From: Squalus acanthias
Taxonomy: Eukaryota
Direction: 5' to 3'
DNA: 64,000 nucleotides
NCBI GenBank assembly: GCA_030390025.1
Contig: CM059432.1
Span: 16,060,001-16,124,000, forward strand
In this document: positions 15,073-63,491 of the stretch, in pieces
Numbering within the stretch: the first letter of the stretch is position 1
Layout: each line of letters starts with the position of its first letter
Translations under genes and position numbers: made by a program
Notes under the pieces: generated by a model
What the model was told of the DNA's origin: nothing
Databases searched by the model: none
Seen by the model: only the letters and a program-made list of their open reading frames with translations

Positions 15073-15109
15073 TCACAAGCTTTCGGAGCGCTGCTCCTTC
15101 GTCAGGTGA
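15073..15109 (-). ncRNA. Minimal type I hammerhead ribozyme motif (family B)
   Basis: Minus: UCAC-CUGACGA-A-GGAGC(AGC)GCUCC-GAAA-GCU-U-GUGA. Confidence 0.75.
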
Positions 15110-15151
15110 AGTGAAGAGATACATATAGGCACCTATATGTATCTCTTCACT

Positions 15152-15188
15152 TCACCTGATGAAGGAGCAGCGCTCTGAAAGCTTGTGA
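15152..15188 (+). ncRNA. Minimal type I hammerhead ribozyme motif (family B)
   Basis: UCAC-CUGAUGA-A-GGAGC(AGC)GCUCU-GAAA-GCU-U-GUGA. Confidence 0.75.
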
Positions 15189-15719
15189 TTTCAAATAAAC
15201 CTGTTGGACTATAACCTGGTGTTGTGCGACTTCTCACATTTGTCCACCCCAGTCCAACACTGGCATCTCCACATCTTGATCCCACATGACCTCTGGAAAG
15301 CACTTCCTGTCTTCCTCTTGTGACGAATATTATTCAGTAGGATTCAGGAAATGGACAGGCGCACATATTTACATCCCAGGTAATATATCATTTACAAATT
15401 GCAAATCATCTCCCCCTTCATTTGCAAACATTCTTGGGCGTGTTCAGTTTGTAATCTCAACAGCTGAAAGCACACGAGGAACACAAGCGACCTCAGCAGG
15501 TCCGAGCGACAAATGACTTGAACCTGCCGTCCTTCAATGCCTCTTCTGTCATAGAAATTTACAGCCCAGAAGGAGGCCATTCGGCCCATCTTGTCCATGC
15601 CGTGCCATACATGTCTGAAAGCACTATTCCAATATCACTTTCCAAGATACTTTTCTCAACCTAGTGGATAAAGGCATTGTTATATTTTAGGATATTTTTA
15701 TCCTTTTTCCTCCTCTCTC

Positions 15720-18467
15720 CTCCTTTAAAGCATCTCACCTTATTCCATCCCTCTCACCTCTCATTTAAAATTTCCCTTCTCTACCGCCCACCCAAGTACC
15801 ATAAAAATTTTATTACTGAGATATCTTCACTGCTCTCCTCCCTCAGCCTCTGCACCGAACGATCTCTCATCCTTGGTGATTTCAACCTCCATCTCAATTC
15901 ATCATGCTCTCTCTCTCCTCTGAGTTCACTAGCCTCCTATTCTCCCGTAATCTCTCCCTCCATGTAAACTCCCCAACCCATATTCACGGCCACCCCCTCG
16001 ACCTTGCCATCTCTCGTGGTCGCGCTACTCCCATCATGTCAATCGCAGATAAGGCCATCTCTGACCACTTCCTCGTATCGCACTCCACCCACATCCCTCC
16101 CCCCCCCCACCCCACACACACACCCCCCACACCCCCCCCACACACCCCCAACCCTACTTCCTTCTGTGTCTGCCCCGGAAAAAACTCTCTCCCGACTCGC
16201 TTACAACTGCACTTATGAAATCCCAACTGTCCAGCCTTTGGCCCTCCAGTCACCACGACATTTCTGCAACTACCGATCTGCTCAACACACACCCTCACCA
16301 CCACCTTTGATGCCCTAGTCCCTATTAAAACAATTACTCTCTCTCACCCTGGCCGTTCCCCCTGGTACGGCCCTCATCTTCGCTCTCTCAAGTCCAAGGG
16401 ACGCAGACCTGAATGGATATGGCGGACAACTGGTTTAGCCATTCACCTTGATCTGGCTGGACCACATAAAGCACTATCGGGTCTTGCTCTCATCTGCCAA
16501 AATTGCTCACTATTCCAGAATCATTCTGGAATGCAAAGATAAACCCTGGCTCCTATTCTCTACTGCTAACCGTCTTCTTAAACCCCTCTCCCCTGTCTCC
16601 TCCACCCTCACCTCCGACAACAAGTGTGAGGAGCTCATGGACTTCTTTGTCTCTAAGATTGAGACCATCCGTTCAGCTGCCTCTGCCACTTCCCTTCCTT
16701 CCCCTAGCCCACCGGGCCAAACTTCCTCTAAAGTTCCCCCCTGCCCTAGCCCTGAACTCACATCTTTCTCCAGTTTCTCTCCGATCTCCCCTCATGACCT
16801 CTCTGCGCTCATCTTGTCCATGAGACCCACCTCCTGCTCCCTCGACCCTATTCCCACCAAACTGCTGACCACCCAACTTCCTTTTCTGGCTCCCATGTTA
16901 GCTGAAATTGTTAATGGTTCTCTCTCCTCAGGTACTGTCCCCCTCTCCCTCAAATCTGCTGTCATCACCCCTCTCCTCAAAAAAACAACCCTTGACCCCT
17001 CCATCCTTGCAAACTACCGCCCCATCTCCAACCTCCCTTTCGTCTCTAAAGTCCTTGAACGTGTTGTTACCTCCCAAATCCGTGCCCATCTTTCCCGCAA
17101 TTCCATGTTTGAATCCCTCCAATCAGGTTTCCACCCCTGCCACAGTACTGAAACGGCTCTCATCAAAGTCACAAATGACATCCTTTGTGACTGTGACAAA
17201 GGTAAACTATCCCTCCTCACCCTTCTTGACCGGTCTGCACCTTTGACAAGGTTGACCATCCATCCTTCTCCAACGCCTCTCCACCGTCATCCAGCTGGGT
17301 GGGACTGCACTCGCCTGGTTCCATTCTTATCTATCTAATCGTAGCCAGAGAATCACCTGCAACGGCTTCTCTTCCCACTCCCGCATCGTTACCTCTGGTG
17401 TCCCCCCAAGGATCTATCCTTGTCCCCCTCCTATTTCTCATCTACATGTTGCCCCTTAGCGACATCATCCGAAAACACAGCGTCAGTTTCCATATGTACG
17501 CCGATGACACCCAGCTCTACCTCACCACCACTTCTCTCGACCCCTCCACGGTCTCAATTGTCAGACTGCTTGTCAGACTCCAGTTCTGGATGAGCAGAAA
17601 TTTTCTCCAGTAAATGCTGGGAAGACCAAAGCCATTGTTTTCAGTCCCCGCCACAAACTCCGTTCCCTAGGCACTGACTCCATCCCTCTCCCTAACATCT
17701 GTCTGAGGCTGAACCACACTGCTCGCAACCTTGGTGTCATATTTGACCCTGAAATGAGCTTCCAACCACATATCCGCAGCATAACTAAGACCGCCTATTT
17801 CCACCTCCGTAACATCGCCCGTCTCCGCCTCTGCCTCAGCTGATCCGCTGCTGAAACCCTCATCCATGCCTTTGTTACCTCTAGACTTGACTATTCCAAC
17901 GTATTCCTGGCTGGCCTCCCACATTCTATCCTACGTAAACTTGAGGTCATCCAAAACTCGGCTGCCCGTGTCCTAACTCGCACCAAGTCCCGTTCACCCA
18001 TCATTCCTGTGCTCGCTGGCCTACATTGGCTTCCGGCTAAGCAACGCCTCGATTAAAAAATTCTCATCCTTGTTTTCAAATCCCTCCATGGCCTCGCTCC
18101 TCCCTATCTGTGTAATCTCCTTCAGCCCCACAACCCCACAACCCCCCCGAGATATCTGCGCCCCTCTAATTCTGCCCTCGAGCATCCCTGATTATAATCG
18201 CTCAACCATTGGTGGCCGTGCCTTCTGTTGCCTAGGCCGTAAGCTCTGGAATTCGCCACCTAAACCTCTCCGCCTCTCTACCTCTCTTTCCTCCATTAAG
18301 ACACTCCTTAAAACCTACCTCTTTGACCAAGCCTTTGGTCATCTGCCCTAATTTCTCCTTAGGTGGCTCGGTGTCAAATTTTTTGACTTATAATAGTCCT
18401 GTGAAGCGCCTTGGGACGTTTTTCTACGTTAAAGGCGCTATATAAATACAAGTTGTTGTTGTTGTTG
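15720..18467 (+). mobile_element. L2-clade LINE, longest copy (AP endonuclease + RT, disrupted)
   Basis: LYRPPK, ILGDFNLH, GHPLDL, SDHFLV (APE); NYRPISNLPFVSKVLE, QSGF, PQGSIL, YADDTQL (RT); (TTG)n tail; several frameshifts. Confidence 0.95.
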
Positions 18468-18619
18468 TCTTTTTACTTTTGACTTCAGTATTGCAGGCTA
18501 CTCTTTAGGTGAGCCCTCACTTCTTACGTCCTTTAGTTACCGGCCTCAAACACACATCCAACTCTACTTTAAAATCTTTTACCGTCTGGCTCCGCTGCTT
18601 CCCTGGATGGTCCACTCCA

Positions 18620-20240
18620 CAAATTTACACGTCACAACGCAGCCGAGAGCTCTCCTGCAATGACTTCTCATCCCACACCAGCACAGTCACCTCCAGCATG
18701 CCCCAAAGTCCATCCTGCACCTCCTCCTGTGCCTCATCTCTGTGATACCCCTCGCTAACATTATCCATAAGCAAGCAGAAACTTCTATATTTCTACCTCT
18801 GAAGCTCAACTCTGCTTCACCACCGCTCCCGACCCCTAGTCTATAACTATTGGGTCCAACATCATGTCATGACTATGCCAGAACTTTCACAGGTGACGAG
18901 ATTGAAGCCATCCTATTCAACGCACACCAGAAATTCTGCATTCTTGCCCCCAGTTCAATCCCCGGTTCCGGCTGCTCAATCAGGCACAACTTTGGTGTCC
19001 TGTTTGACCCCGAGCTCAGCTTGAGACCACTTTCCTATCCATTACCAAAACTGACTATTTTTAGCTCCACAGCGTCACCCACTCTGTCCCTGCCTCACCC
19101 CATCTCCGCTGAAACTCTAATCCACAGCTTCATCACCCGCAGGCCCACTTTCTGCATTGCACTCCCACCAACCTCCCGAGCTCCTTCCTGCACAAACTGC
19201 AACTTCTCCAAAGCTCACATCATCCACAGCCTATTCTATACTAATCCCTGATCACCTCTCAACTCTGTTCTAATTGATCTCCACCGACTCCCCACATCGC
19301 CAATACTTTGTTTTCAATATCCTTATAAGAACATAAGAACATAAATAGGAGCAGGATTAGGCCATTCGGTCCTTCGAGTCTGCTCCGCCATTAATAAGAT
19401 CATGGCTGATCTTCTACCTCAACTCCACCTTCCCGCACTATCCCCATATCCCTTGATTCCCTTAATATCCAAAATTCGATCGATCTCTGTCTTGAATATA
19501 CTCAACGACTGAGCCTCCACAGCCCTCTGGGGTAGAGAATTCCAAAGATCCACCACCCTCTGAGTGAAGAAATCGCTCCTCATCTCAGTCCTAAATGACC
19601 AACCCTTTATTCTGAGACTGTGACCCCTAGTTCTAGACTCCCCAACCAGGGGAAACATCCTCCCTACATCTACCCTGTCGAGGCCTGCAAGAATTTTATA
19701 TGTTTCAATGAGATCACCTCTCATTCTTCTAAATTCTAGGGGAATATAGGTCTAGTCTCCTCAATCTCTCCACATAGGACAATCCTCCCATTCCAGGAAT
19801 CAGTCTGGTGAACCTTCGTTGCACTCCCTTTAAGGCAAGTATATCCTTCCTTAAGTAAGGAGACCAATACTGTACACGGTACACAGTATTATTTACAAAT
19901 TCCTCCATCACATTCTCTCACCCTGCCTCTGGAACCTCCGCAAGACCTATGTCCATGCTCAAGTCTTCCACTCTGACCTAATATGCGTCTTCCCATCTCT
20001 CTGCCGCCACTTTCAGTGGAAGAACCTTCAACCACAATGGAGCCTGCACTGTGTAAACCTTGCCCCAAACATTTGCCTCACCTCTCTCCATCTTTAAAAG
20101 CTTCCTCAAAACCCAAATCTTTGGCCTTGCTAGGTCACCTCCCCTAACTCTTAATACCAACATGGGAATTATTTCTCCCTCTCTTTGTGAAGCTCCTTGG
20201 GATGTGTCGTTAAGCTAAAGGGGCTATACAGTGCTCACAG
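18620..20240 (+). mobile_element. Older diverged L2, interrupted by CR1 at 19327-19880
   Basis: NFGVLFDPELSLRP, AETLIHSFIT; degenerate L2 tail TGTGAAGCTCCTTGGGATG...AAAGGGGCTATA at ~20187-20230. Confidence 0.7.
19327..19880 (-). mobile_element. CR1 LINE 3' fragment
   Basis: [11 protein letters not shown]...[12 protein letters not shown]...TRGHSLRI; (ATAAGAAC)n tail at the left end. Confidence 0.95.
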
Positions 20241-20519
20241 GTATAGAAATTGGATCGTGCCCCAAGCATGCTGCACGCGCCGAATGAGGCCAGCAGCAGG
20301 ACCATGGCAAATTGGTCTGCCAGCCTCATTAGTGTGGTACCAGCCAGCTATGGGCACCAGTCACAGCCCCAGAGGCAGCTCGCCGGTCAAGGGGCATAGC
20401 AAGATCGGCCAACTGGGACGCCAGTCGAAGACCTAAGGAGAGTCCGGGGGCAGGGAGGAGACAATCAATGGTCAGCAGCGGCCTGCAGTTTTAATGTGGA
20501 GGATATTATCTGTAACATT

Positions 20520-21504: not shown

Positions 21505-21692
21505 AGATCTATAATTTCCACAGAGCTCCTCTCAATCTCCCGCCATAACCTCGGAGGAAGACTGGCAGACCACCAGAAAAATCAGGTCAATGGATAAAAA
21601 CAGCCGATCACACCACTTCTCCAGGGTTTCCGCCAATCTACTACTGGAGTTGCGGCCGGAGATCTGAAGAACCCCGTGAAAATTTTCCCTCA
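21505..21692. repeat. Degenerate hairpin MITE
   Basis: Left arm AATTTCCACAGAG...ATCTCCCGCCATAACCTC...AGACTGGCAGA resembles rc of right arm (AATTTTCACGGGG...ATCTCCGGCCGCAACTCC...AGATTGGCGGA); related half at ~12600-12715. Confidence 0.6.
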
Positions 21693-25803: not shown

Positions 25804-27332
25804 TGAGATTTAAAGTTATTTAGCAAGAGAAATGTTCAACTCCCTAAAATATTTTTGCATTTTCTCCAATAAATTAATTGGGCATTTTCCTTACATGTTT
25901 AGTGTCGGTACAAAAGGTTTGTAATGTAAATCTGGAGTTAAGACAGACCTGACTCCCGAGAAGAACTTAAGGAGACTCCCACCTTTGCTTTACTCTGGTG
26001 TCATGTTGGATCTGACTTCGGATTGAAACTGCATTTACGCTATAACTGTAGCGTGAATTAAAAGCACTCTGCACCAACACTATAGCTGTAATGTACATGC
26101 ACCCTAAGACTCAATGTCAGACGTAACTAGGAACTGGTTAAGAAGTGGGAGAACTAATTTATAATGTTACACAAGGGGGAGGCAATAACCAGATCTAAAA
26201 AATGAAACAGAAATAGACTTAAGCCTTTGAACAGATGATTTGATCGGAACATTTATTTTGGGTGAACAGCCTTAATGTCAGATTACAGACAAACCTCAAG
26301 AAATTCTTTCTGAACACATCAGGGAATGACAGATGTCTCAACATTACAGACTATAACAAACGCAGCAAGTGCAAATATGTGAGGGACCCACTAAATGCGC
26401 TATGAAGGTGCCGAGTTAATCGTAACAGGAGCTTACAAGGTTGAACAAGAGTAAATACAAGAGGCTGAACAAGATTTTGCCAAGCCACGTTATTCTAGAT
26501 ATAACATTGAGTACTCAGGCACTGTGCAGCTGGCTCTGGAATATTGATCCATTCCATTTTTAGAGTCCGACACTGGCGCAGTCAATTAAGGACTCAAATA
26601 ATAGGCTGGAGACGCAAGGAAAAGGGAATGGCCGGAATCAGAGGTCAGAGGAGACTCGTAGGAACCAAGCATGGCGATACATGACAGAGAGCATTACTGC
26701 CGTTTCCGTGACTTGGAAGATCCAGCATGAGGTATGGAAGAAGGCACATTGCTTAAAGAGGTAGACACAGGTAGCGCAATGCAGCGGATTCATTGGCCCT
26801 GAAGTTCTTGGTGTGCGAGGGGTCACGCCTCCGTCACAATCTCAACAAGTCTTTGTGCTTCCATGCCCATATAGATTGCTCTGTTGTGTTTCCCATGTAG
26901 CAAGTGTAAGTAACTGCTGCACTTCATGACCCTCCTATGCCATCTGCACTCCTGGGCTACTCTTCTTCTCCTCCTTCTGCCCATTCTCATAAACCCATCA
27001 GTGGCCACTACACCCATGCTTTTGGTCGGAAAAGCAGTCTCTACTATTTATTTTTCTCACGGCTGTTAAGTTCACTAACTCCAACCTTATCTGCAGTCAA
27101 ATACTTACCTTTTGATCAGTTCTGCAGTTGGGGAATGCTGCACTAGTTTAGCATTAATGCCAATATAACAAGGTCTTAAAAAAAATTACATTTGACTTTT
27201 TCATACTTGCAGCTAGCAAGGTAGGAATGTTCAGAGTTACGCTAATCAAGGACAAAGGTCATTGACCTGAAACGTTAACCCTACCTTTCTCTCTCCACGG
27301 ACGCTGCCTAACCTGCTGTCACTTGCTCCCAA

Positions 27333-27565: not shown

Positions 27566-28470
27566 ATCCCACCAGGGAATTCTTCATTTGAGGTGAAACA
27601 ACCCAGAAACGCCAGGCCTCATGTTTCTATATAATCTTCCTCCCCTAGTTGATCCTCACAACTTGTAGTTACAATTTAAAAAACTGATGCAAGAAATATC
27701 CAATGCTTTGTACATTTGTTGAACTCACAGGTCATGTCTAATGATGAATGACTACACTTGGCTGTAGAGAATATTTAAGAGAAAGGCGTATTGCAGCAAG
27801 CCTGTGATAAACAACACTAGTCTGCCAAGCACTTACTGAAGCAGCACCAACAATATCATGACTTTGGGAGGGAAACATACAGAAAAGGAACTCTTCCTTC
27901 AGTTAAACCAAAATAAGCTTCAATAAATATTACATAGAGGAAACCTACCGTCAAGAAGACATAATAAAATGAATATTAGTCGGTACGTTCGCAGCTCAGT
28001 ATGTTGCTGAGCCAGATGGATCAGGAATGTCCCAATTCGATCCCCGGTTTTGGTTGAGTAAATTAGTTTCAATTGGGGTTCATTTCGAGGGGCGCCACAA
28101 TGAGTCTGTGCCTCTCGGCAGGATTGGGAAAAGAATCAAGCCTGGGTTCCCACTTCCAATTCCTATCCACAGCCACCTACGAGGACATTGGGTGAATAAT
28201 AAGTTTGGGATTAGCTGTCAAATAGCCTGCTGACACTTCAGAATAGTTTCCTCCCTTTTTGGTGGGTTTATTCAAAAGGGATGTTATTGAAGGAACTATA
28301 TCATTCAATGTATTTTCCTGGGTATTAGGCACAACATTACTTTCCAGCAATAAAAAGAGAAAATGCTGGAAATACTCAGCAGGTCAGGCAGCATCTGTGG
28401 AGAGAGAAACAGAGTTAATGTTTCAGGTCGATGACCTTTCGTCAGGTAATCGACCTGAAACGTTAACTAT

Positions 28471-30204
28471 GGCCGCGATTTCGCCTAGCGAGGCGAGCCC
28501 GGGGTCGGTAGCGCAGTCCCAGCCCGCTGCCTGCTCCATCCCACTCTGCTGAAGTGATTTTACGTCGATGGGGCTTGTTAAGCCCGCCCAGCGAGGTTCT
28601 CGGCCAATTAAAAGGAAGCGGGTCTGATGACGCGTCGTCAGCCAGTTTCTTTAAAGGGGCCATGTCCAAACTGATTTTGACAGTTGTGCTGTCAGTGTTC
28701 TACAGCATTGAGGTGCTGCAAACACTGACAATCACTGCACAAAGGTGCACAGCTGCACCCAGGCTCTCCCATGACTCCCTCCATATGCTTATGGAGGGAG
28801 TCACAGCACGCAGGGAGGTTCTCTTCCCTTCCCATGGGCGGAAGAGACCTCCCCAGGAGACCAACGCAGCCTGGTTGCACATTGCTCAGAAGGACACAAG
28901 CAGGGATGTCATCAGGAGGACCAGGCTGCAGTGCCACAAACCTTTCAATGATCTCAGTAGATCACGAAACGTTACTGCAAAGCCACACTCAACCTCATCC
29001 TGCTGTGCCACTCATCACATCCCCATCACTCTGCCTTCCCTACCCTACTCCTGCACATCCTTGCTCACACCAACTTACCTTGCACCTCCACCCATCCCTC
29101 TCTATCTACATTATCACTTCCCCATCTCACTAGCCACCCTCACACTCATCCTCATCCTAGTCCAATCACACAAGGGTAGGCAGTTGGATGTTTTAGCCAA
29201 TGTTCACGTGAAATTTCTGTTAATGTGCTGTCAAACATTGAAATCTTTTCAACACTTTGCCTTCATGGACAGATTTGTGTGCACCTTTCGAAGTGGCTTA
29301 GTGAGTTGCAGTGAATGGTGAGACATAACAGTTCCCCCTCCAATGGTGGTGAGTGTGAAAGGAATGGCTTGGTCATTGTAGGGATGCTTTATGGTGTTGG
29401 TGTGGGGTGATGCCAACCTGGTGCATCATGTAGCAGCCATATGGGTGTACAGCGTAAAGTTAACTAAATCTGCCCATGAAGGCAGCATCCCGGGCAGCAA
29501 TGTGGTCGGGTGCTGATGCCGTGTCCTGTGCAGCATCAGGTGATTGCGGAGAAGGTTGGTGTTGTTGTTGGTGCTGCTGGTTTGCCTGGTGATGCTGGTG
29601 TTGTGGCTGATCGTTGTGGGATTCTGAGGACCAAGGTGAGATTTTTTTCAAGGGCACCGATGCTGATGGAATAGGTGAGGTTGAGATGACAGAAACGATC
29701 TGTCAATGGTGAGAGAGGTTGTTCCAATGAGGTGACACTAGATAGAGAGTTTGCTCCAAACACTTGCAAGCGACATAAAGCTCAATCTGTCTTCCAAATG
29801 CAGTAAGCAACAGCTTCTAACCTTGGAAGGTGAAGACCTATGAAATGGGAGCTTTTATAGACCATTTGCAGCGGTCAAGTTCGTAAATCATCCCATGCTG
29901 ACACAACACCCGACCTCCTTACATGACGTGATCCCCTAGCAGCAGGGAAGCCATTGGCGAACTCTAAAAATCTAAAGGTAAGCTTAAAATACGACTTAAT
30001 TGCCTCTTAACAATCCAGCTAATGATCTAAATTGCCTCCCCTTCGCTTGGTGTCGGGTCTGTTCAGCACTGACAGACCCGACACCTGGGAGACTAGCGTG
30101 AAGGCGGGTTGACAGCGGGGGTCCCGACCCGCTGTGCATCATTTGAAATTTCACAGCTGGCCCGCCTCCGATCCCGTCCTCTCAGCGCCGGCAAAATTTC
30201 GGCC
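28471..30204 (+). mobile_element. Non-autonomous PIF/Harbinger transposon with Myb/SANT-like ORF remnant
   Basis: TIRs GGCCGCGATTTCGCC / GGCCGAAATTTTGCC(rc); TSD TAT; removing it restores the family A consensus CGTTAACTnTGTTTC. Confidence 0.88.
28725..28975 (+). pseudogene. Myb/SANT-like DNA-binding domain remnant (Harbinger accessory ORF)
   Basis: APRLSHDSLHMLMEGVTARREVLFP...AAWLHIAQ...RRTRLQCHKPFNDL fits the pattern F...LL..V..R...LF...W..IA...RT..QC.K.(W/F).DL. Confidence 0.8.
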
Positions 30205-31372
30205 TATGTTTCTTTCTCCACAGATGCTGCCTGACCTGCTGAGTATTTCCAGCATTTTCTGTTTTTATATCTGATTTCCAGCATCCGCATTATTTTGCTT
30301 TTGCATTACTTTCCAGCATCCATTGCATCTAGTGAGGTGGGAGGGAAGGGGGGGTTACATTTTAAAATGGACCACAATCTGAGTACAAAATCAATCAATC
30401 GTAAGACAATTTTTTTTTTAAATGTAAAAATCTGCAGCCTTCTTTAGCGCCGCTGGAGCCAGCCGACCACGCTTTGCCACTCCAGGTGACCAACACCTGC
30501 AGCAGCAACATTCCCACCACCACGAGCAGACTCCCAGGCAAGGCTGCAAATCCCAGCAGGACCCGGTCCATCTCCAGAGCCGGCAAAATCCCTCTCGGTC
30601 AATGTTAGGGCCGATGCCCAGTCCACCCTGCCGCAATTATTGTGAAGATTATGGCCTCGGAGGAGCTGCCTAGAGCCTCTTAGATAAAGTACTGGAGGTC
30701 ATCCTGTTGAACAATACCCCACCGTAAGACAACTGGGGCTTTGGGGGAGAGAAAGGGAGGGAGGGAAATTGAGGAAGAGAAAAATGAATATAAATGCATG
30801 AAGTTCCCTTTTCTTACTATAGATTTTAAGGAGGATGCATCAATTATGTTCGCTCATTCAAATATTACAAGGTCAGAAGATAGCTACGAATGAGGAAGGC
30901 CATTCGGCCCATCTTAACTCATTCATCCAGAGAGAACATACCCCCACTGCAACATCCTATGCTTTCCTAAGTGATTCCGGGGTTTTTGCCTCTATTACTC
31001 TAACTGGGAGTTTATTCCGCATGTTGATCATGATTTGTGTCCTGATTTCAGTCCTCAAATTATCTCCTACTAGCTGAAATCTATGTCCTCTAGCTCTGCA
31101 CCCATAATTTAATTTGAAGAATGTTCTGGGTTAAACACTTAACAATGTTGTATATCTCTGCGAGATCACCTCTCAGATACCTCCTTTCCAGGCTGAAAAG
31201 TTAAAGTTTCTTCCGTCTTTCCTCAGAACTCAGACGCCTGACACTCGGGATCTGCCTCGTGGCTATTCTCTGCATTGGTTCAAGTTCTTGAATGTCTCTC
31301 TTGTTTCTTGGTGACCAGAAATGGATGTAATCTTCAAGGCGCAGTCTGAGCAGAGTGCTATATAAAGCTTGA

Positions 31373-31586
31373 GAAGTCGCACAACACCAGGTTATAGTCC
31401 AACAGCTTTATTTGAAATCACAAGCTTTCGGAGTGCAGCTCCTTCGTCAGGTGACGTCACTTCACCTGACGAAGGAGCAGCGCTCTGAAAGCTTGTGATT
31501 TCAAATAAAGCTGTTGGACTATAACCTGGTGTTGTGCGACTTCTCACATTTGTCCACCCCAGTCCAACACCGGCATCTCCACATCA
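31373..31586. mobile_element. Palindromic Penelope-like hammerhead element, family B
   Basis: ~85-bp arms 31370-31454 / 31462-31546, 40-nt tail, 14-bp TSD TATATAAAG(C/T)TTGA (31359-31372, 31587-31600); hammerhead cores at 31418-31454(-) and 31462-31498(+). Confidence 0.88.
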
Positions 31587-31620
31587 TATATAAAGTTTGA
31601 TCAAGACCTCCCCTGAATTA

Positions 31621-34441
31621 TAGAAACATAGAAACAGTACAGCACAGTACAGGCCCTTCGGCCCTCGATGTTGTGCCGAGCATTGTCCGAGACCAAGATC
31701 AAGCTATCACACTCCCTATCACTCTGGTGTGCTCCATGTGCTTATCCAATAACCGCTTGAATGTTCCTAAAGTGTCCGACTCCACTATCACAGCAGGCAG
31801 TCCATTCCACACCCCAACCACTCTCTGAGTAAAGAATCTACCTCGGACGTCCCTTCTATATCTCCCCCCATGCACCTTATAGTTATGCCCCCTTGTAACA
31901 GCTGCCTCTACCCGAGGAAATAGTCTCTGAACATCCACTCTATCTATCCCCCTCATCATCTTATAAACCTCTATTAAGTCGCCTCTCATCCTCCTCCGCT
32001 CTAAAGAGAAAAGCCCCAACTCCCTCAATCTTTCCTCATAAGACCTCCCCCCCAAACCAGGCAGCATCCTGGTAAATCTCCTTTGCACTCTTTCCAATGC
32101 TTTCACGTCCTTCCTATAGTGAGGTGACCAGAACTGCACACAATATTCCAAATGTGGTCTCACCAAGGTCCTGTACAGTTGCAGCATAACCTCACGGTTC
32201 TTAAACTCAAACCCTCTGTTAATAAACGCCAACACACCATAGGCCTTCTTTACTGCTCTATCCACTTGAGTGGCAACCTTCAGAGATCTGTGGATATGAA
32301 CCCCCAGATCCCTCTGCTCCTCCACGTTCCTCAGAACCCTGCCGTTGACCCTGTAATCCTTATTCAAATTTGCCCTACCAAAATGAATCACCTCGCACTT
32401 ATCAGGGTTAAATTCCATCTGCCATTTTTCGGCACAGCTCTGCATCCTATCAATGTCTCTTTGCAGCCTACAACTGCCCTCCACCTCATCCACTACTCCA
32501 CCAATCTTGGTGTCATCAGCAAATTTACTGATCCACCCTTCAGTCCCCTCCTCCAAGTCATTGATAAAAATCACAAACAGCAGAGGACCCAGCACCGACC
32601 CCTGTGGCACACCGCTGGTAACTGGTCTCAGTCCGAAAATGTTCCATCCACCACCACCCTCTGCCTTCTATGAGATAGCCAGTTACTTATCCAATCGGCC
32701 AAATTTCCCTCTATCCCACAACTCCTTACTTTCTTCATGAGCCGACCATGGGGAACCTTATCAAACGCCTTACTAAAATCCATGTATACGACATCAACTG
32801 CTCTACCTTCATCTACACACTTAGTTACCTCCTCAAAGAATTCAATCAAATTTGTTAGGCAAGACTTACCCTTCACGAATCCGTGTTGACTATCCCTGAT
32901 TAAGTTGCCCCTTTCCAAATGGTCATAAATCCTATCCCTCAGGACCTTTTCCATTATCTTACCAACCACCGAAGTAAGACTAACCGGCCTATAATTACCA
33001 GGGTCATTCCTATTTCCTTTCTTGAAGAGAGGAACAACATTCGCCACTCTCCAGTCCTCTGGCACCATCCCCGTGGACAGTGAGGACCCAAAGATCAAAG
33101 CCAGAGGCTCTGCAATCTCCTCCCTTGCCTCCCAAAGAATCCTAGGATATATCCCATCTGGCCCAGGGGACTTATCGACCCTCAGGTTCTTCAAAATTGC
33201 TAAAACATCTTCCCTCAGAACATCTACCACCTCCAGCCTATCCACCTTTATCACACTCTCATCCTCAAGAACATGGCCCCTCTCCTCGGTGAACACTGAC
33301 GAAAAGTATTCATTCATCACCTCTCCTATCTCTTCTGACTCCATGCACAAGTTCCCACTACTGTCCTTGACCGGCCCTACCCTCACCCTGGTCATTCTTT
33401 TATTTCTCACATAAGAGTAAAAGGCCTTGGGGTTTTTCTTGATCCAACCCGCCAAGGACTTCTCATGCCCCCTCCTAGCTCTCCTAAGCTCTTTTTTTAG
33501 CTCATTCCTTGTTACCTTGTACCCCTCAATCGACCCAACTGAACCTTGTTTTCTCATCCTTACATACGCTTCCTTTTTCCTCTTGACTAGACATTCAACC
33601 TCTTTTGTGAACCATGGTTCTCTCACTCGGCCATTTCCTCCCTGCCTGACAGGGACATACCTATCAAGGACACGCAGTAATTGCTCCATGAAAAAGCTCC
33701 ACTTTTCGTTTGTGCCTTTCCCTGATAGTTTCTGTTCCCATCTTATACTCCCTAATTCTTGCCTAATCGCATCATAATTACCCCTCCCCCAATTATAAAC
33801 CCTGCCCTGCCGTATGGCCCTATCCCTCTCCATTGCAATAGTGAAAGTTACCGAATTGTGGTCACTATCTCCAAAGTGCTCTCCCACATACAAATCAAAC
33901 ACTTGGCCCGGTTCATTACCCAGTACCAAATCCAACGTGGCCCCAGCTCTTGTCGGCCTATCCACATATTGTGTCAGGAAACCCTCCTGCACACACTGTG
34001 CAAAAACTATCCCATCCGAACTGTTTGACCTATAAAGGTTCCAATCAATATTTGGAAAGTTGAACCCATGACAACTACTCTGTGACCTCCACACCTATTC
34101 ATAATCTGCTTTGCAATTTCTTCCTCCACATCTCTATTACTATTTGGGGGCCTGTAGAAAACTCCTAACAACGTGACCGCTCCTTTCCTATTTCTAACTT
34201 CAGCCCATATTACCTCAGACGGCAGATCCCCCTCGAACTGCCTTTCTGCCGCTGTTAAACTATCCTTGATTAACAATGCTACTCCTCCACCTTTCTTACC
34301 AACTTCCCTACTCTTACTGAAACATCTATACCCCGGAACTTCCAACAACCATTCCTGTCCCTGTTCTAACCATGTCTCCGTAATGGCCACCACATCGTAG
34401 TCCCAAGTACCAATCCACGCTCCAAGTTCTCCTACCTTATT
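31621..34441 (-). mobile_element. Young CR1 LINE, almost complete ORF2 (APE + RT) with two frameshifts
   Basis: ORFs 34007-34393, 32628-34094, 31699-32610: AITETWL, FYRPPNS, SDHN, KSPGPDGI, NYRPVSLTS, DFSKAFDKVPH, PQGSVLGP, FADDTK; (TTTCTATG)n tail. Confidence 0.97.
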
Positions 34442-35261: not shown

Positions 35262-35366
35262 TTTTCTGATAAAAGGCCATCGACCTGAAACGTTAACTCT
35301 GTTTCTCTCTCTCCACAGATGCTGCCTGACCCGCTGAGTATTTCCAGCATTTTCTGTTTTTATTCC
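35262..35366 (+). mobile_element. Family A hammerhead element, single arm with mutated core
   Basis: CTGATAAAAGGCCATCGACCTGAAACGTTAACTCTGTTTC...; G8 mutated to A. Confidence 0.75.
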
Positions 35367-35369
35367 ACT

Positions 35370-37275
35370 GGCCGGAATTTTGCCTACCTGGGCGGGTCCG
35401 GTGCGGGCAGTGGCCATGGCGGGTCGCGACCCCGCAGCTAGCTCCATCCCATTGCTGAAAATGAACTTACGTTAATAGGGCCTATTAAACCCGCCCAGCA
35501 CGTTACCCGGCCCAATTAAATGGAATGGGTCTGGTGACGCATTTTCAGCCGGGGTCCTTAAAGGGACATTGGCTACATTAGATTTGATGTTTAATCCAAC
35601 AGTGTTGTCAGTGCACTACAGCATTGGAGTGCTGCAAACACTGACAATGACTGCACAGAGGCAGAAGGCTGCACCCAGGTTCCCCGATGACTCCCTCCAT
35701 TAGCACGCAGGGAGGTCCTCTTCCCTTCCGATGGGCGGAAGAGACCTCCCCAAAAGACCAAAACAACCTGGTTGCAGATTACAGAGGAGGTCACAAGCAG
35801 GGATGTGTTCAGGAGGAGCAGGCTGCAGTGCCGCAAACATTTCAATGATCTCAGTAGATCACGAAGCGTTAGTACAAATCCACACTCACCTTTATTGGGT
35901 ATATTCAAAACAGAAGTCAATAGATTTCTGACTAGTAAGGGCATCAAGGGATATGGCGATAGGTTCGGTGAATGGAGTTGAGGCAGAAGATCAGCCATGA
36001 TCTCACTGAATGGCGGAGCAGGCTCGAAGGGCCTACTCCTGCTCCTATTTCTTATGTTCTTATCCTGCTGTGCCTCTCATCACATCCCCATCACTCTGCC
36101 TGCCCTACCCTACCCCTGCACATCCTTACTCACACTAACTTACCTTGCATCTCCACCCATTCATCTCTATCTACATTATCACTTCCCCATCTCACTAGCC
36201 ACCCCTCACACTCCCCCTCATCCTAGTGCAATCATACCAACTAATAACACACAAGGGTAGCCTCTTGGGTGTTTTATCCAATGTTTACGTAAAGTTTCCA
36301 TTAATGTGCTGTCAAACATTGAAATCTTTATTTTCAACACTTTCTGTTCTTGGACAGATTTGTGTGCATCTTTGGAAGTGGCTTAGTGAGTTGCAGTGAA
36401 TGGTGAGACATAACAGTTCCCCCTGCAATGGTGGTGAGTGTGAAAGGAATGGCTTGGTCATTGTAGGGATGCTTTATGGTGTTGTTGTGGGGTGATGCCA
36501 ACCTGGTGCATCATGTAGCAGCCATATGGGTGTATAGCATAAAATTAACTAAATCTGGCCATGATGAAGGCATCCCTGGCCAGCAATGTGGTCGGGTGCT
36601 GATGCACTCTGCCCTGTGCAGCATCAGGTGATTGCAGAGAAGGTTGGTGCTAGTGTTGTTGGTGCTGGTGTTGGGGCTCATCGTGGTCCAATTCGGAGGA
36701 CCAAGGTGAGACAGTATAAAGGGCACCCATGTTGATGGAGTAGATGGTAGGTGAAGTACAGATGACAGAAGCATTCTGTCAATGCTGAGAGAGTTCTTCC
36801 AATGATGTGAGACTGGATGGAGGCTTTGCTGGAAAGACTTGCAGCCTGCAGAATCTGTGCTGAAAATGGACTGAGCAACAGCTTCTGCCTGAGGAAAGTG
36901 ATGATCTGTCAGGTGGGAGCTTTTACTGTACATTTGATGCTATCAAGTAATCAGCTGGAGCAATGGCCACTGAACTCCCGCCTCAGGTTGACAGATGTGC
37001 TTCCCGAGCAGCGTGGTTGCCGTGGCCATGCAGTTAAATTTAAAAAGTAAGTTAAAAAAAAGCCTGTTAAGGGTCTAACAACTAGCTGTTAATCATCTCA
37101 ATTGGATCACCCGCTGCTACCGGTCAGGTCAGCTCCGCGATGACAGACGTGCCCAGGGGGGAAAGGCACGTAGGGGCGGGATGACAGCGGGTTCCCGACC
37201 CGCTGTCAAAAATAACAACTTTCCCACCCGACCCACCACCGATCGTGCCCGCTACCACCCTGGAAAATTCCGGCC
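35370..37275 (+). mobile_element. Second non-autonomous Harbinger of the 28471 family
   Basis: 12-bp perfect TIR GGCCGGAATTTT; TSD ACT; colinear with 28471-30204; W.QITEEVTSRDVFRRSRLQCRKHFNDL; CR1 tail inserted at ~35895-36062. Confidence 0.9.
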
Positions 37276-48723: not shown

Positions 48724-49288
48724 GGGCTCGATATTAACCCTACCCACCCAGCAGAAACCAGGTGGGTATGCAGGTAAAAACGGGCAGGTTACTTACCCAC
48801 ATGGATATCGACCCTTTCCCACCGCCTCAGTTACTAACCCCGCAAGGTTCTACAGGCGGATAGGAAGCCTGCCTAAAGCATGAATTTATGCAAATCAGTA
48901 GCCTGTTACGTCAATGGAACACTGATGGCATTTTAACCGGGGCCAGAGAGATTTTCCCACCCGGCTGACGCGGGTCCACAGCTTGTGGGAAAGGCGAAGA
49001 GGCCCTCCAGGTATGTCAAAAAATGTCCTTCATGGGACCAGCTCCCCTGCCCAGGACTCCCCCACAACTCCCCGCCTCCCGAACCCCTCTTCCCTCCTGT
49101 AAGACCCTCACAAAATCTCTTCCTGGCTGGCTGCCACTCTATACCCTCTTCGGACGCAAAGTTGACCGGATACATTTAAATGAGGCCCGGGTGTTAAAAT
49201 AGCCCCAGGCCTGAAACTTAGGCAAGGGAGTGTGTTTTTCCATTCACTCGGCCCATCCCCCACCCCGCCTGCCCGAAACCCCTGCTCG
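48724..49288. mobile_element. MITE-like element, right end replaced by a family B tail
   Basis: Starts GGGCTCGATATTAAC; ATTTAAATGAGGCCC motif shared with 56050-56623; family B tail at 49288-49362. Confidence 0.5.
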
Positions 49289-49694
49289 TTGGACTATAAC
49301 CTGGTGTTGTGCGACCTCTCAATTTTGTCCACCCCAGTCCAACACCGGCATCTCCGCATCATCGCCAGCATTAACATCTTATTACTGGAGGAGGCGGATG
49401 TTTGTTAAGATTACAGTGGAAGACCTTCAAAAAACTAATGCTACAGGTGCAGGGCAAATACATGCTTAAGATCAGCAAGCTCAGACTAAACAACTCCAAA
49501 TAGATTAACACACTTTCAAAATGAAATAGAGGAGAAACGCTACAGGGAGAAAGAATGAAGGGCTCACGGAGATGAATGTAGGATCATGCAGAAACAAGTT
49601 GAAAGAAAGAGTGATCAGAGGGGCAAAGAGAGACCTAGGGGGAACAAAAAGCATAGCTGCAGAGACGAAACAGAATGCAAAAAATGCTCTCAGT

Positions 49695-54864: not shown

Positions 54865-55160
54865 AATCCTCATCTTTTGTTTCTTAACTTGTCCCATTAC
54901 CATCTCCTTTTGCCTTGCACCATCATCCCTTTTGTCTCTTAATCTCTCCTGCCTTCCACCCTATCACAGACCTTCCCTTTTGTTCTTTCCTCCCCTCCCC
55001 CCTTTCCCTGCCCCGACACTTGCTTAAAAACCTGTTCCAGCTCCTGCTTTTTTCCAGTTCTGACGAAAGGGTCATCGACCTGAAACGTTGACTCTGTTTC
55101 TCTCTCCACAGATGCTGCCTGACCTGCTGAGCATTTCCAGCATTTTCTGTTTTTATTTCC
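54865..55160 (+). mobile_element. Family A hammerhead element, long single arm
   Basis: Pyrimidine-rich leader, then AGUU-CUGACGA-AA-GGGUC(AUC)GACCU-GAAA-CGU-U-GACU at 55056-55093 and family A tail. Confidence 0.8.
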
Positions 55161-56623: not shown

Positions 56624-57350
56624 ACAGGTTGTTTTTTTTTTTTTAAAAAGGGCAAGTTATGATAGGTTTTAAGGCAGGTTTTAAGGCTAATTTTCAGCCA
56701 GTTTGATTAGCCAATCAAAAGCCCACGTGGGGGGTCACAGGTCCATGGTGCTGGATTCCTAACATCATCAAAATTCAGCAGAACAGTTACACAGAAGTAC
56801 CATCAAATGTGACCTATCTATCCCTAAGGCCATCTATCTATAGTTTCCAAATAATGTCAATCCTAAAAATGTACACATGAATTAAATTTAAACCTGTGAT
56901 TGGAGGCCATCTGTCCATAAAGAACAGCTGAAGTCCATCTCAGGGATGGTATCCTTCTGGACCGATCTTGCTGTATAAGGAACTATCTGGTTTATTTTTA
57001 GTTTTCATTCTAAATTAATCCAATGTAAAAATACACAATCATCATTTTACAGCACAGAAGGTGGCCCTTCGGCCCATCGCGCCTATGCCAGCTCTGAAAG
57101 ACCTATCCACTTAGTTCCGTTCCCCTGGTCATTAACATCAACATTTTTCCCTTTCCAAATATTTACCTCTTTTAAACATTGGAAGATAGTGTAGAAATTT
57201 CACACACTAGGGTATATTTTCCAATTGGGCATCCGTTCGGGTATAATTGGACAATGTTACTAGCACCCACTCATCAGTTAGTGCCGTGATCTAGCTTGAT
57301 TTTGCCTGGCATTGGAAGCTTGCTGGGGGAACAGGCATCTGTGTGTAAGT

Positions 57351-57780
57351 AACATAGAAACATAGAATCTAGGAGCAGGAGTAGGCCATTCGGCCCGTCG
57401 AGCCTGCTCCACCATTCAATACGATCATGGCTGATCATCCAAATCCAGTACCCTGTCCCTGCTCCAATCCCCACAGTACACACATCCCACCCTACCCCCG
57501 CAACCCCACGCACCTAATTCCCCCTAACATATCCCATCCTATCCCCATAACCCCACATATTTATTCCCCCCCTAACACTAAGGGTCAATTTATCATAGCC
57601 AAATCAACCTAACCCGCACATTTTTGGACTGTGGGAGGAAACCGGAGCACCCGGAGGAAACCCACGCAGACACGGGGAGAATGTGCAAACTCCACACAGA
57701 CAGTCACCCGAGGTCAGATTCGAACCCGGGTCCCTGGCGCTGTGAGGCACCAGTGCTAACCACTATGCCACCGTGTTGCC
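57351..57780 (-). mobile_element. Full-length HE1/V-SINE
   Basis: Minus: A box TGGCATAGTGG, B box GGTTCGAATC, V-domain, CR1-type tail ending TTCTATGTTTCTATGTT. Confidence 0.93.
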
Positions 57781-57861
57781 TTGAATTGTAAAATTTAAGG
57801 GATTGCCACTTAAAGGTGGATGGGGACAAAAATGTCGGTAGCTTTTACAAAGCTTCTAATA

Positions 57862-58125
57862 TTTGAAACAACAACAGAAAACGCTGGAAAAACTCAGCAG
57901 GCCAGGCAACATCCGTGGAGAGAGAAACAGAGTTAACGTTTCAGGTCGAAACCCTTCATCAGAACTGAGAAAAAAAGCAGGAAATGGAACAGATAAAAAA
58001 GCAAGTGGGAGGCTGGGGGGAGGAATAAAAGAACAAAAGGGGTGGTCTATGGTAAGTAGAGACATTAAGAGATGCTCAAGGCAAGACGAGATGGTAATAG
58101 GACAGGTTAAGAAACAAAAGGTGGC
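57862..58125 (-). mobile_element. Family A hammerhead element, single arm
   Basis: Minus 57931-57966: AGUU-CUGAUGA-A-GGGU(UUCG)ACCU-GAAA-CGU-U-AACU. Confidence 0.82.
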
Positions 58126-58177
58126 TCAGAAGTGTGTGAAATGCTGGCAGACCTTTTGTTTCAGGAGTTTTGAGCTG

Positions 58178-59719: not shown

Positions 59720-60197
59720 CATCGCCCCTGCGCTCGCTGACCTACACTGGCTCCCGGTTAAGTAGCGCCTCGATTTCAAAATTCTCATCCTTGTTTTGAA
59801 ATCCCTCCACGGCCTCACCCCTTCCTATCTCTGTAATCTCCTCCAGCCCCACAACCCCCCCCCCCCCCCCCCACCCCCAAGATATCTGCGCTCCTCTAAT
59901 TCTGCCCTCTTGAGGATCCCTGATTATAATCGCTCAACCATTGGTGGCCGTGCCTTCTGTTGCCTAGGCCCTAAGCTCTGGAATTCCTTGCCTAAATCTG
60001 TCCACCTCGCTACCTCTCTTTTCTCCTTTAAGACACTTAAAAGCTACCTCATTGACCAAGCTTTTGGTCACCTGCCCTAATTTATCCTTATGTGGATCGG
60101 TGTCAAATTTTTTGTCTTAAAATACTCCTGTGCAGCGCCATGGGACATTTTACTACGTTAAAGGCGCTATATAAATACAAGTTGTTGTTGTTGTTGT
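59720..60197 (+). mobile_element. L2 3' fragment
   Basis: Matches 18000-18467; (TTG)n tail. Confidence 0.93.
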
Positions 60198-60285
60198 CTT
60201 TCCAGAAGGGCATTAGTGACCCAGTTTGGGCCTTTACAACAGTGCAGCAGCTTTCTTGGTCATTTTTTAAAATTGGCGTTGACCC

Positions 60286-60480
60286 GGAGTAATTTTAACT
60301 TATCAGGCAAAAAAGCAGGCGATAGCGAATCGTCAGCCTCTTTCACACGTTAATGTCAATGGAAATCCACAATTTACATGTCTGAAGTCAATGGAAAAGA
60401 AAACCAGGCAAGCTGTAAAACAGGCAAGCTGATTCACCGCCACCGGTTTTACGCTCAGCGATACAAGTTAAAAATCACCC
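60286..60480. repeat. ~195-bp hairpin MITE
   Basis: GGAGTAATTTTAACTT / GGGTGATTTTTAACTT(rc) termini with further inverted similarity inward. Confidence 0.65.
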
Positions 60481-61499
60481 TGGATTCAGCTTCACAAATT
60501 TACCACATTGGGATTTGAACGCTCAACCTCAGGATTGCTAGCCCAGTGCCGTAGCAATTAAGCTGTGTCATAGCCACCGACATAAATAAAGTCGACATGG
60601 GCACACAACAGGTCACAGTTTGTTGATGGTACCAAACAAGGCGACAAACTGAGGAAGAACGAAGGAGGATAAAGAGAAAGACAGGTCACTTTGTTTGGTT
60701 AGAACGCGGAGGTGAGCAGCATCGAGCAGAAACCTACAACCCCTCTTCCCGCTGCTGTGTCGGTTTTTGTTTTCAGTATGCCGCTGGCCTGAGCTTTTTA
60801 CGCTGCGACTGACGGCAGTTCTCAGAACCCATGAAACCTCAAGTCCTTAAGGCCGGCAGAAGCGCGCATTTAGATTGCGCGCACGCTGTCAAGTGCTGCT
60901 AACAGTGGGAGCACTGCATGTTGCCACCGAGTGGAACCAGTAGAAGGAAGCCCAGGCAAAGTGAGGGCCCTGGGGATCAGAGTGTCTAGCAATAACCCGA
61001 CGACTATCTGGACGTAAATTTAAAGAATATAAAATCGAACAACTCACATGGTTATCCCACTCATTTGGAGAATTGGGTTATTTTTCTTGTTTTCTCTCTT
61101 TAAAGAATTAACCGTCAATTGAAAAGCTTTGCTCCAGAAAGTTGCCAGCACTCCTGGAACTCGTGGGGAATGGAATGTTGACATGCCTAATTTTAAAAAT
61201 GACCAGGAAGTTCTTTTTTTTTTAAAAAAGTCCCTTTCTTACGACTAATAATAGTTTTTGAGGATATACCATCAGGTTTAGAAAGGGAAGCGGGGACTAG
61301 TTCCTTTTCACACAAATATTTAAGTCTCAGTCACACAACATTCATGAATTACAACTTCCCAAACCGGTTAGAGTTCTGGAGGTACAACAGATAAATCGAG
61401 CAGCCAGAATCCCGGTTTAGTGTCAGGTCTCTCATATGCCCTGGCTTCACTCTAATGCACAAGGGTCATCTTTGCTGTGGAGTCTGCCATAAGGTAGGT

Positions 61500-61732
61500 A
61501 CTAAAGGGAATTCAGATCCAGAGTGATCTCCTGGACTAGTTTTGATTGCCTCGATGGGTTGGAGAGGAATTTCCCAGAATTTCCCCCCCCCCCCCCCCAG
61601 ATTGGCCTGGGTTTTTTTTAAATCCATTTTTTGGCCTCTCCCAGGAGATCACATGGTTACGGGTGGGGTGGAGTGTATATATTGTCATACGCAAGGATTC
61701 GCAATTGTGGGGGACAGGCTCGATGGACCGGA
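61500..61732 (+). mobile_element. LINE-like 3' UTR remnant
   Basis: Ends GGGACAGGCTCGATGGACC; diverged relative at ~8500-8845. Confidence 0.5.
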
Positions 61733-61759
61733 ACTTGTGACCTGTCAAGTTTCAGCTTG

Positions 61760-62330
61760 ACAGATCCACCGCATCCCCGGGAAATGGACATTTGCCCAGC
61801 GAATGCCCGCGAAACCAGCCTAAGAGTTTAAATAAATATTAAAATGATTTTTTTTTAAATTATTTAAACATTAAAAAAAAACTTTAAAATTAGTTTAGGT
61901 TATTTTTAGCCCCTTTAAAATGTTTAATTTATTTTTCAAAAAATTAAATTTTTGTTTTAAATGTTTAATTAAATTGTATTTGAATTAATTTTGAACATGT
62001 AATGATTTATTTTTATTTAACTGGTGTGTAATTGTGTTTTTTTTTTAGGGGATTCCTATTCATGCTTCTGGGGTATTCCGTACGTAAATGGAATCCCCAG
62101 AAGCATAATGGGGATCCCCCTTTTTGATTGGTTGGGCCCGCCCACGGAATCCCAGGGACGCTTACGAACCGTGTGCGCCCCCTGGGATACGTGGACCTTT
62201 ACGCAGGCGTACGCGTGGAGGCCCAGGAGCGCGAGTCTACGAACCTCCGGGCCCATCAGGTGGGTTCGTACTTTTCTTGCGGTTCAGAGGCATTCGCCCG
62301 CGGGAAGCCTCCGACCGCAAATTCAGGCCC
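61760..62330. mobile_element. MITE-like element with very AT-rich core, left end missing
   Basis: Right terminus rc GGGCCTGAATTTGCGG; CGTA/TACG-rich subterminal region. Confidence 0.55.
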
Positions 62331-63196
62331 AGTGATGTGGAATACAATCTGCTCAGCTGATGCCAGCGTAAATCAGGGGCATTTTCGTGCTGGCACCAAT
62401 TCGGTACATAGCAGGCTGCAGACTTTCCACCAATTTGTACCTGATCTGACCATCGTACCCTCTCCGCGTACGGTGCCCCTCGCAGTTCAAATGTCTTTTT
62501 TTTTTGGATTATTCCTTTGTCAGAGGTACGATCAAAAGAAATAAAGGAAGTTCAGTGTGATACCACCACACTGAAAGAATTCGGTACAAATCAAGGCAGC
62601 ATGACTCGTAGGTTTCATCACGGTTCAGAATTCCCACATACATTTGCTTGATGTTGTTAACTTCGTCATAGAAATCACAGATCCATGGTGGCCATCCACA
62701 GCACTATTGCATACTACATTGCCATCCTTTCACTGGCAGATGACTTTTTAAAAATATTTTAGAATGGGGCTTTTTTTTTTAAGTTTAAGGGAAAATATCT
62801 TGGTATCATTTTTAAAAACAGGAAGTAAGTTTTAGGGGATGAATAATGGGAAAGCAGATGGTTTCGACAGTGCTTTTCAAGCTTTTCTGTGCAAGGAAAG
62901 CCCCACAGATAATGACACACTCCTGGGGACCCTAGTGTCCTAACTCCAGAAGGGAAGTCTGAACTACCCAAAGGAAAAGAGTGCTATCATTATATACAGT
63001 GACACCGACGTCGGGTGGGAGAGGGTCGTGGCGGGTTAAATACGGGGAACGTGACCACACCACGCAACTGCCCGAGTGTCCCGCCGTGGAGAGGCGGGAT
63101 GCTTAATTAACATTCAAATTAATGCAATTGGGAACAACAACAGAAAACACTGGAAAAACTCAGCAGGCCAGGCAGCATCCGTGGAGAGAGAAACAG

Positions 63197-63233
63197 AGTT
63201 AACGTTTCAGGTCGAAGACCTTTCGTCAGAACT
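63197..63233 (-). ncRNA. Minimal type I hammerhead ribozyme motif (family A)
   Basis: Minus: AGUU-CUGACGA-A-AGGUC(UUC)GACCU-GAAA-CGU-U-AACU. Confidence 0.75.
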
Positions 63234-63454
63234 GGAAAAAAGCAGGAAATGGAATAGATTTTAAAGCAGGTTTAGGGGCGGGGAAATGGGGATGGGGATG
63301 AAAGAACAAAAGGGAAGGTCAGTGATAGGATAGAAAGCAGGAGAGATTAAGAGACATTGAGAGATATTCAAGACAAGAGGAGGTTTCCCTCATTTCCCCC
63401 ATTTCCCCGCCCCTAAACCTGCTTTAAAATATATTCCATTTCCTGCTTTTTGCC

Positions 63455-63491
63455 AGTTCTGACGAAGGGTCACAGACCTGAAACGTTAACT
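63455..63491 (+). ncRNA. Minimal type I hammerhead ribozyme motif (family A)
   Basis: AGUU-CUGACGA-A-GGGUC(ACA)GACCU-GAAA-CGU-U-AACU. Confidence 0.75.

Follow-up and report, generated by a model that had tools for sequence, protein, structure and literature searches.

Two families of predicted minimal hammerhead ribozymes in the terminal repeats of Penelope-like retrotransposons of Squalus acanthias

Minimal hammerhead ribozymes of type I have been described in the pseudo-long terminal repeats (pLTRs) of metazoan Penelope-like elements, where they carry an extra base after A9 and a palindromic 15.2-16.2 segment, occur as opposite-strand pairs and show low activity in vitro (Cervera and De la Pena 2014, PMC4209133). 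Close to these stand the endonuclease-bearing (EN+) Neptune-clade elements (Craig et al. 2021, PMC8557442), the Poseidon element PAc of Anolis carolinensis (Frangieh et al. 2024, PMC11167929) and the animal non-LTR retrozymes (bioRxiv 10.64898/2026.07.22.740005), reported from one chondrichthyan. Here we analysed a 64,000-nucleotide stretch of the Squalus acanthias genome (the window, positions 1-64,000), in which two families of hammerhead motifs, A and B, had been predicted. Judged from sequence, it is highly probable that these motifs, predicted minimal type I hammerhead ribozymes, belong to the terminal repeats of coding Penelope-like elements, and that these parent elements and twin-primed copying jointly explain their distribution.

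All eight motifs originally listed as intact read exactly as claimed, in coordinates and strands. Each combines the CUGANGA, GAAA and NUH core with stems I and II, an extra nucleotide after A9 and a palindrome in place of helix III. Reading the sequence also confirmed the palindromes (ACGU in A, AGCU in B), the extra A and the GUU and CUU triplets, and the stems were as described for family B and for stem I of family A, but stem II of family A has five pairs, RGGUC/GACCU, and not GGUC/GACC. With C3, the first base of CUGANGA, set to 0, the predicted cut of either family falls between +28 and +29. A descriptor (stem I of 4 bp, CUGANGA, 0-2 extra nucleotides, stem II of at least 4 bp, GAAA-NN-U-H) returned exactly these eight motifs and no others in the window, none in 100 dinucleotide shuffles and none in 40 kb flanking the window. 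The motifs resemble those of PMC4209133 in CUGANGA with one extra nucleotide, a 3-5-bp stem I, the missing helix III loop and the palindromic 15.2-16.2 segment, as well as in their mostly solo copies, nearby opposite-strand pairs and thousands of occurrences per genome; these features and the parent elements described below bear out the Penelope-type identity originally proposed. The table of that paper includes a lamprey motif with the UCAC/GUGA stem I of family B and a turtle motif with a GC palindrome and the CUU triplet, and the portion of it compared holds no match to either family. Supplement file 2 of PMC4209133, the one file covered by a term search, contains no shark term, and a literature search, which did not cover the Repbase and Dfam entries that may list these families, found no paper on shark Penelope hammerheads. 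The arrangement has been known since 2014, and the two families are apparently undescribed.

To estimate genomic load, we applied the descriptor to 129 evenly spaced 10-kb stretches, 1.29 Mb of the 3.7-Gb genome. The 27 strict motifs found (21 per Mb) extrapolate to about 78,000 intact motifs (51,000-113,000, Poisson, clustering ignored), in keeping with the predicted density resembling that of short interspersed elements (SINEs); about 4,000 are given for the coelacanth and 9,000 for Xenopus, with different descriptors (PMC4209133), and the genome is probably among the larger vertebrate hammerhead loads. The window, with 8 motifs in 64 kb, lies about sixfold above the sample mean. The same sample contained 69 terminal pieces of family A and 24 of family B.

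Elsewhere in the genome, copies (loci with L-numbers) end at common 3' positions, and their nested 5' ends, in both families, reach into an open reading frame (ORF) for reverse transcriptase (RT) and GIY-YIG endonuclease. Full elements run from hammerhead through this ORF to a second hammerhead, with motifs 3.1-3.2 kb apart (L051 and L048 in family A, L047 in family B) and direct repeats of 149 nucleotides at 98% (L047), 243 at 98% (L051) and 365 at 95% (L048). The open frames span 705-813 amino acids; DKG, YIDD, a split GIY-YIG motif with two Cys and a CX4CxxC linker are present in all three long ORFs, and both His motifs of CCHH in two. Pfam RVT_1 was detected in three of the four proteins scanned (the fourth being an N-terminal piece), above the cutoff in B (E 6e-10) and below it in A (4e-5 and 2e-4), and GIY-YIG in two A ORFs, both below cutoff (0.002 and 0.005). 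Across evenly spaced samples totalling 890 kb, the A element is covered by about 29 copies at its 3' end, a depth that declines smoothly to one near the ORF start, and B behaves alike; such a gradient is ordinary 5' truncation of coding elements. An RT/GIY-YIG element is present upstream of the repeats of both families, which excludes repeats without such a parent, and each family thus reads, from these sequences, as the terminal repeat of a coding Penelope-like element and not as a separate SINE. The separate non-autonomous derivatives of the original prediction are not supported, given the nested 5' ends that run into the ORF and the smooth fall in coverage, and its description of the families as unrelated holds for the motif sequences but not for the ORFs, which are 35% identical over 663 amino acids.

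By motif, both ORFs appear to be of the Neptune type. Elements of that clade share with ours an RT with C-terminal GIY-YIG, a CX2-5CxxC linker, CCHH and pLTRs, along with 5' truncation, inverted 5' arms and a 30-40-bp tail that is often one-ended; the placement is by motif alone, and Nematis shares the RT-EN linker trait with Neptune (PMC8557442). A structure comparison of the A ORF matched no solved structure. PAc is alike in its two internal RT start sites that define a tail, in a pLTR hammerhead close to the beginning of the ORF and in its uncut RNA template, but it is a member of the Penelope/Poseidon clade with an ORF that begins within the hammerhead (PMC11167929), whereas the first ATG of the long ORF lies here at +121 (B) or +168 (A). 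Retrozymes likewise carry type I hammerheads derived from Penelope pLTRs, but they are non-coding tandem arrays (bioRxiv 10.64898/2026.07.22.740005), whereas our copies are dispersed and same-family, same-strand neighbours mostly flank an ORF. One diverged piece at L045 (7387-7530, about 300 nucleotides upstream of a B motif) resembles A from +37 to +127 within the B 3' untranslated part, as if an A-like end had once inserted into a B ancestor.

The 3' ends of copies fall into two classes, at about +97 and +123 to +140 in A and at about +82 and +122 in B, such that the two end points lie about 38-40 nucleotides apart. In the 1.29-Mb sample, 31 short and 38 long ends were counted for A and 14 short and 10 long for B. 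The long ends are the Penelope tail, which is often or optionally present at one end only (PMC8557442, PMC3846280). When we evaluated 58 abutting head-to-head pairs, both ends could be classed in 53, and 52 of these joined a long to a short end, L049 being the exception; among the last-fetched stretches, L218, L210 and L239 were clear long-plus-short pairs, L233 runs to the query end and L213 is ambiguous. This rule was known in outline and its near-strict count is the addition made here; the portion of PMC11167929 compared contains no statement of it. A shared stretch of at least 7 nucleotides (mode 12) flanks 48 of 53 pairs compared with 2.75% of mismatched flanks, and since target duplications bracket the pairs, each pair is one event. 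The arms of a pair come mostly from one donor, differing at 16 of 324 diagnostic sites in A and 9 of 94 in B, against 37% and 44% for random arms. The residual mismatch of B arms (9.6%, versus 1.4% at other sites) could also be explained by mutation hot spots. One locus (L013, 2304 onward) has an inverted arm running from +115 into the ORF start, unlike the usual arm at the pLTR end, and a search for tiny hidden inverted arms beside solo copies gave 1 of 45, itself a paired copy.

We propose that the GIY-YIG domain would nick both target strands about 12 nucleotides apart, and that reverse transcriptase would prime from each of these nicks, using, just past the hammerhead, the distal start site in one case and the proximal one in the other, so that two complementary DNAs (cDNAs), mostly from one donor, become joined head to head. 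The element's own enzyme likely copied uncut RNA, leaving the 5'-truncated copies and inverted 3' ends seen in the window. Most events would stop early, and the hammerhead, 50-110 nucleotides from the start sites, would be the most amplified part.

Alternatively, a single cDNA could snap back and prime itself, or an antisense template could be copied, and inverted pairs would then form without priming at both nicks, as has been proposed from palindromic junctions (PMC3846280). Shared donors of the two arms fit this route, as do their often matching 5' ends, which lie within 10 nucleotides of each other in 5 of 22 and 13 of 36 pairs (null 0.9 and 3.0). If the long arm snapped back, however, the short arm should never extend further 5', as it does at L036 (-2063 vs -17), L146, L008, L158 and L185; that either arm may be the longer argues against simple snap-back, and in vitro the Anolis protein is able to extend both strands (PMC11167929). 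We consider this alternative unlikely.

Several results weigh against the joint explanation of ribozyme, parent element and twin priming. Folding z-scores of the eight motifs (-1.4 to +0.3) never beat shuffles, and while predicted monomer folds contain stem II in all eight and stem I in all four B motifs, only one A motif forms stem I; in the other three of four the minimum-energy fold lacks it and pairs the core with the palindrome. The 4-bp dimer helix would contribute only -1.7 to -2.5 kcal/mol, and co-folding, with a model that cannot draw kissing pairs, produced no hammerhead dimer. At 10.1-11.1, family A has A-U or G.U throughout and never the consensus G10.1-C11.1 of PMC4209133, the table of which lists such exceptions too; family B has G-C there with some G.U. 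Covariation is thin, with one two-sided change in nine pairs among 12 hand-picked B copies. Rfam gave no hammerhead family match in the window at E up to 1, which the absent helix III may explain, and the B ORF gave no Pfam match to GIY-YIG. Finally, similarity searches selected the loci of most pairs, in which the tail-bearing B query forced one arm to be long, and three short calls are imperfect (L003 at +70, L171 at +108, window 15042). Two other Rfam matches, to microRNAs, fall under curated cutoffs and reflect inverted pairs, and a search for a third hammerhead family with a relaxed descriptor over the fetched loci recovered only one AT-rich stray.

With four subfamily-diagnostic columns removed, the non-CpG core of 38 unselected A copies differs in 8 of 380 cells and the 3' flank in 57 of 1862 (p = 0.40), and in family B the figures are 2 of 126 and 11 of 630; G8, which lies in a CpG, is lost in 7 of the 38. 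The core shows no excess conservation among inserted copies, and these therefore decay neutrally. Between subfamilies, recurrent variants affect N7, H17, loops, A/G at 10.1 opposite U and A/G at 10.3 opposite U, subfamily B3 has exchanged a C-G for a U-A pair in stem I, and 93.5% of cells in the 12 B copies are paired, with wobbles at two pairs. Of the two signs whose lack was originally named as refuting, excess core conservation is thus missing among inserted copies, but changes that preserve pairing do occur between subfamilies. The variant pattern, from few events in a hand-picked alignment, fits selection in source elements, which would maintain the fold only there. Subfamilies of B, represented by L048 and L129 (B2) and by L024, L068, L099, L105 and L125 (B3), show a lengthened stem II loop, another stem I pair and an upstream sequence of their own.

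Given that only 1 of 48 A copies and 1 of 23 B copies begin at the cut site, after removal of four copies split by nested elements, copy ends are consistent with uncut RNA templates. This would also be expected if the motif no longer cleaves and persists as a protein-binding or folding signal, or for RNA-RNA pairing through its palindrome: cDNAs read through the cut site, ribozyme mutants of PAc left insertion in vitro unchanged and no RNA reads began at its cut site (PMC11167929), and a few pairs (L203, L196, L183 and window 63197/63455) have two diagnostic sites at which their arms disagree, the outcome expected of two templates. Subfamily changes nevertheless avoid the catalytic positions and strike N7, H17, loops and wobble or compensated pairs, as if chemistry matters, and the related Anolis motif cleaves together with protein (PMC11167929), so that we regard loss of cleavage as improbable. 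By analogy with the Anolis element, the ribozyme would cut poorly alone and need the element's protein. The close pairs of the window cannot themselves be ribozyme dimers, because in head-to-head orientation any transcript has one of its motifs in sense and the other in antisense.

Three A copies seemingly truncated at +27 were rejected as a sign of cleavage in vivo, their flanks being ends of inverted-repeat elements; at L079 and L103 the 5' half of the split copy sits upstream, and these three copies and window 30209 were excluded from the counts. Elements with terminal inverted repeats and 3-nucleotide duplications split A copies at or near the predicted cut at L079 (3885-6566), L103 (2337-3091) and L132 (604), in all three at about +27, and the nested element of the window interrupts an A arm at about +33, a few bases from that position.

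Family A 5' ends gather instead at the 5' edge of the hammerhead, with 16 of 42 arms reaching +4 ending at -9 to +4 against 2.6 expected (pair arms counted separately and the bin chosen after the first batch); a strict count gives 12 of 38 and a later batch 5 of 10. Family B has no such pile-up (2 of 20 arms), and an apparently fixed B end at -2 was mostly an artefact of the diverged upstream sequence of subfamily B3. The position of the A ends suggests twin priming on uncut RNA. In both families a TATA-like run precedes, by 30-32 nucleotides, an initiator-like motif at -4 (A) or -7 (B), and a transcript start at the hammerhead edge would explain the short A copies. Such promoter-like motifs are present in a rotifer pLTR (PMC3846280). 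The A ends may alternatively reflect a splice acceptor at -2, for which the intron of the Drosophila virilis element offers a comparison (PMC4209133), or microhomology joining. In the Drosophila element the promoter is TATA-less and transcription starts far ahead of the intron, and the arrangement is therefore not universal. Contigs from public sequencing runs, presumably of RNA, matched both families in several organisms and carry no strand, start or cleavage information; among the rows listed, no clean GT-AG joint supported an acceptor at A stem I, which contigs of this kind cannot exclude.

We tentatively suggest, as a possibility that we hold less likely than not to be right in every part, that the A transcript begins with the hammerhead's first base, the TATA-like box lying about 32 nucleotides upstream and the initiator-like motif on stem I, that a protein dimer uses a single uncut RNA to prime both target strands, invariably once at each of the two start sites, that priming in the 5' leader yields dead-end short copies, and that the ribozyme spares the copied RNA and acts elsewhere, for example in limiting templates. 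If true, tens of thousands of genomic fossils would record the Penelope mechanism in vivo. These young, abundant families offer a way into the role of Penelope hammerheads; the copy ends indicate uncut templates, the long-plus-short rule makes sharp predictions for the in vitro Penelope assay, and the insertion statistics are the part meriting a second look.

The recurring 5' end of many family A copies of 100-145 nucleotides favours the original non-autonomous reading, in which a mini-element of its own lineage, SINE-like or a retrozyme monomer, is mobilised in trans and forms most copies. Besides the pile-up, which recurs in the later loci, none of 19 A 5' ends falls between -24 and -100, and target duplications adjoin the 5' end in several short copies. 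Yet the diagnostic bases borne by the short copies are those of several subfamilies in which long, ORF-bearing copies occur as well, the upstream TATA-like box is missing from the short copies, of the arms reaching +4 half extend further 5' and many into the ORF, no hammerhead-bearing tandem array occurs in the window (periods up to 500), and the B ends do not gather; we therefore judge a separate mini-element distinctly improbable. Chance look-alikes within repeats, with which the missing Rfam match and the lack of copy-level conservation would agree, are very improbable and, as regards ancestry, refuted by the empty shuffles, by two diverged families keeping the full geometry at the same element position and by the agreement of that position with the one described for Penelope-like elements.

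Within the window, the approximate dozen motifs originally counted stand as motifs but, as independent copies, represent only eight insertions (27254; 28349-30308; 35264; 54871; 57861; 63133-63597; 15042-15278; 31370-31587), joined by a ninth piece without a hammerhead (Table 1). The four copies called decayed are present, but they are mainly truncated or split (27254, 28445 on the minus strand, 28444 on the plus strand, and 35264).

Table 1. Family A and B insertions, their hammerhead motifs and a nested element in the window (extents relative to C3 = 0)
Feature	Positions	Strand	Extent and remarks
Family B left arm of head-to-head insertion	15042..15132	-	5' end near -27; lacks its native 3' end
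Minimal hammerhead motif, family B	15073..15109	-	Inside arm 15042..15132
Family B right arm	15132..15278	+	-24 to +123, long tail end; contains motif 15152-15188
Minimal hammerhead motif, family B	15152..15188	+	G.U at 10.1-11.1
Family A fragment	27254..27318	+	+6 to +68, core start missing; then 3' end of a long interspersed element (LINE)
Family A left arm	28349..28445	-	0 to +96, short end; starts at C3
Family A right arm, first part	28444..28468	+	+8 to +32; split by 1.7-kb insertion
Nested dispersed element	28471..30204		Terminal inverted repeats, 3-nucleotide duplication, weak Myb/SANT match; splits A right arm
Family A right arm, second part	30205..30308	+	To +135, long end
Family B left arm	31370..31457	-	-7 to +81, short end; contains motif 31418-31454
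Family B right arm	31457..31587	+	-9 to +122, long end; contains motif 31462-31498
Family A solo mini copy	35264..35367	+	-2 to +99; G8 lost
Family B solo piece, no hammerhead	49288..49365	+	+48 to +125
Family A solo copy	54871..55159	+	About -185 to +98; contains motif 55056-55093
Family A solo older copy	57861..58151	-	About -217 to +102; contains motif 57931-57966
Family A left arm	63133..63382	-	-152 to +96, short end; contains motif 63197-63233
Family A right arm	63395..63597	+	-64 to +138, long end; contains motif 63455-63491

Target duplications of 15, 9 and 11 nucleotides bracket 28349-30308, the pair at 31370-31587 and the pair at 63133-63597, respectively. The minus-strand arm at 28349 lacks the 5' strand of stem I and has a mutated palindrome, and the element nested beside it appears to be Harbinger-like; a relative of that element (77%) occupies 35368-37275, directly after the A mini copy. 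In the insertion at 63133-63597, the two motifs have stem II and loop bases typical of different A subfamilies and flanks that agree, which may reflect two templates, a chimeric donor or gene conversion. The broader idea drawn from this pair, that arms derive from two different subfamilies, was mostly rejected by the diagnostic-site match.

At about +63, the native 3' end of the arm at 15042 is replaced by a SINE-like piece. A 358-nucleotide stretch that combines a LINE 3' end and a 47-nucleotide repeat with a portion of a SINE-like element is present twice, at 96% (14686-15042 and 57344-57701), and its first copy is the sequence that replaces this 3' end. The remainder of the window is dense in other repeats, LINE RT fragments included, and at 31699-34094 LINE-type RT fragments of 321 amino acids on the plus strand and 488 on the minus strand lie side by side.

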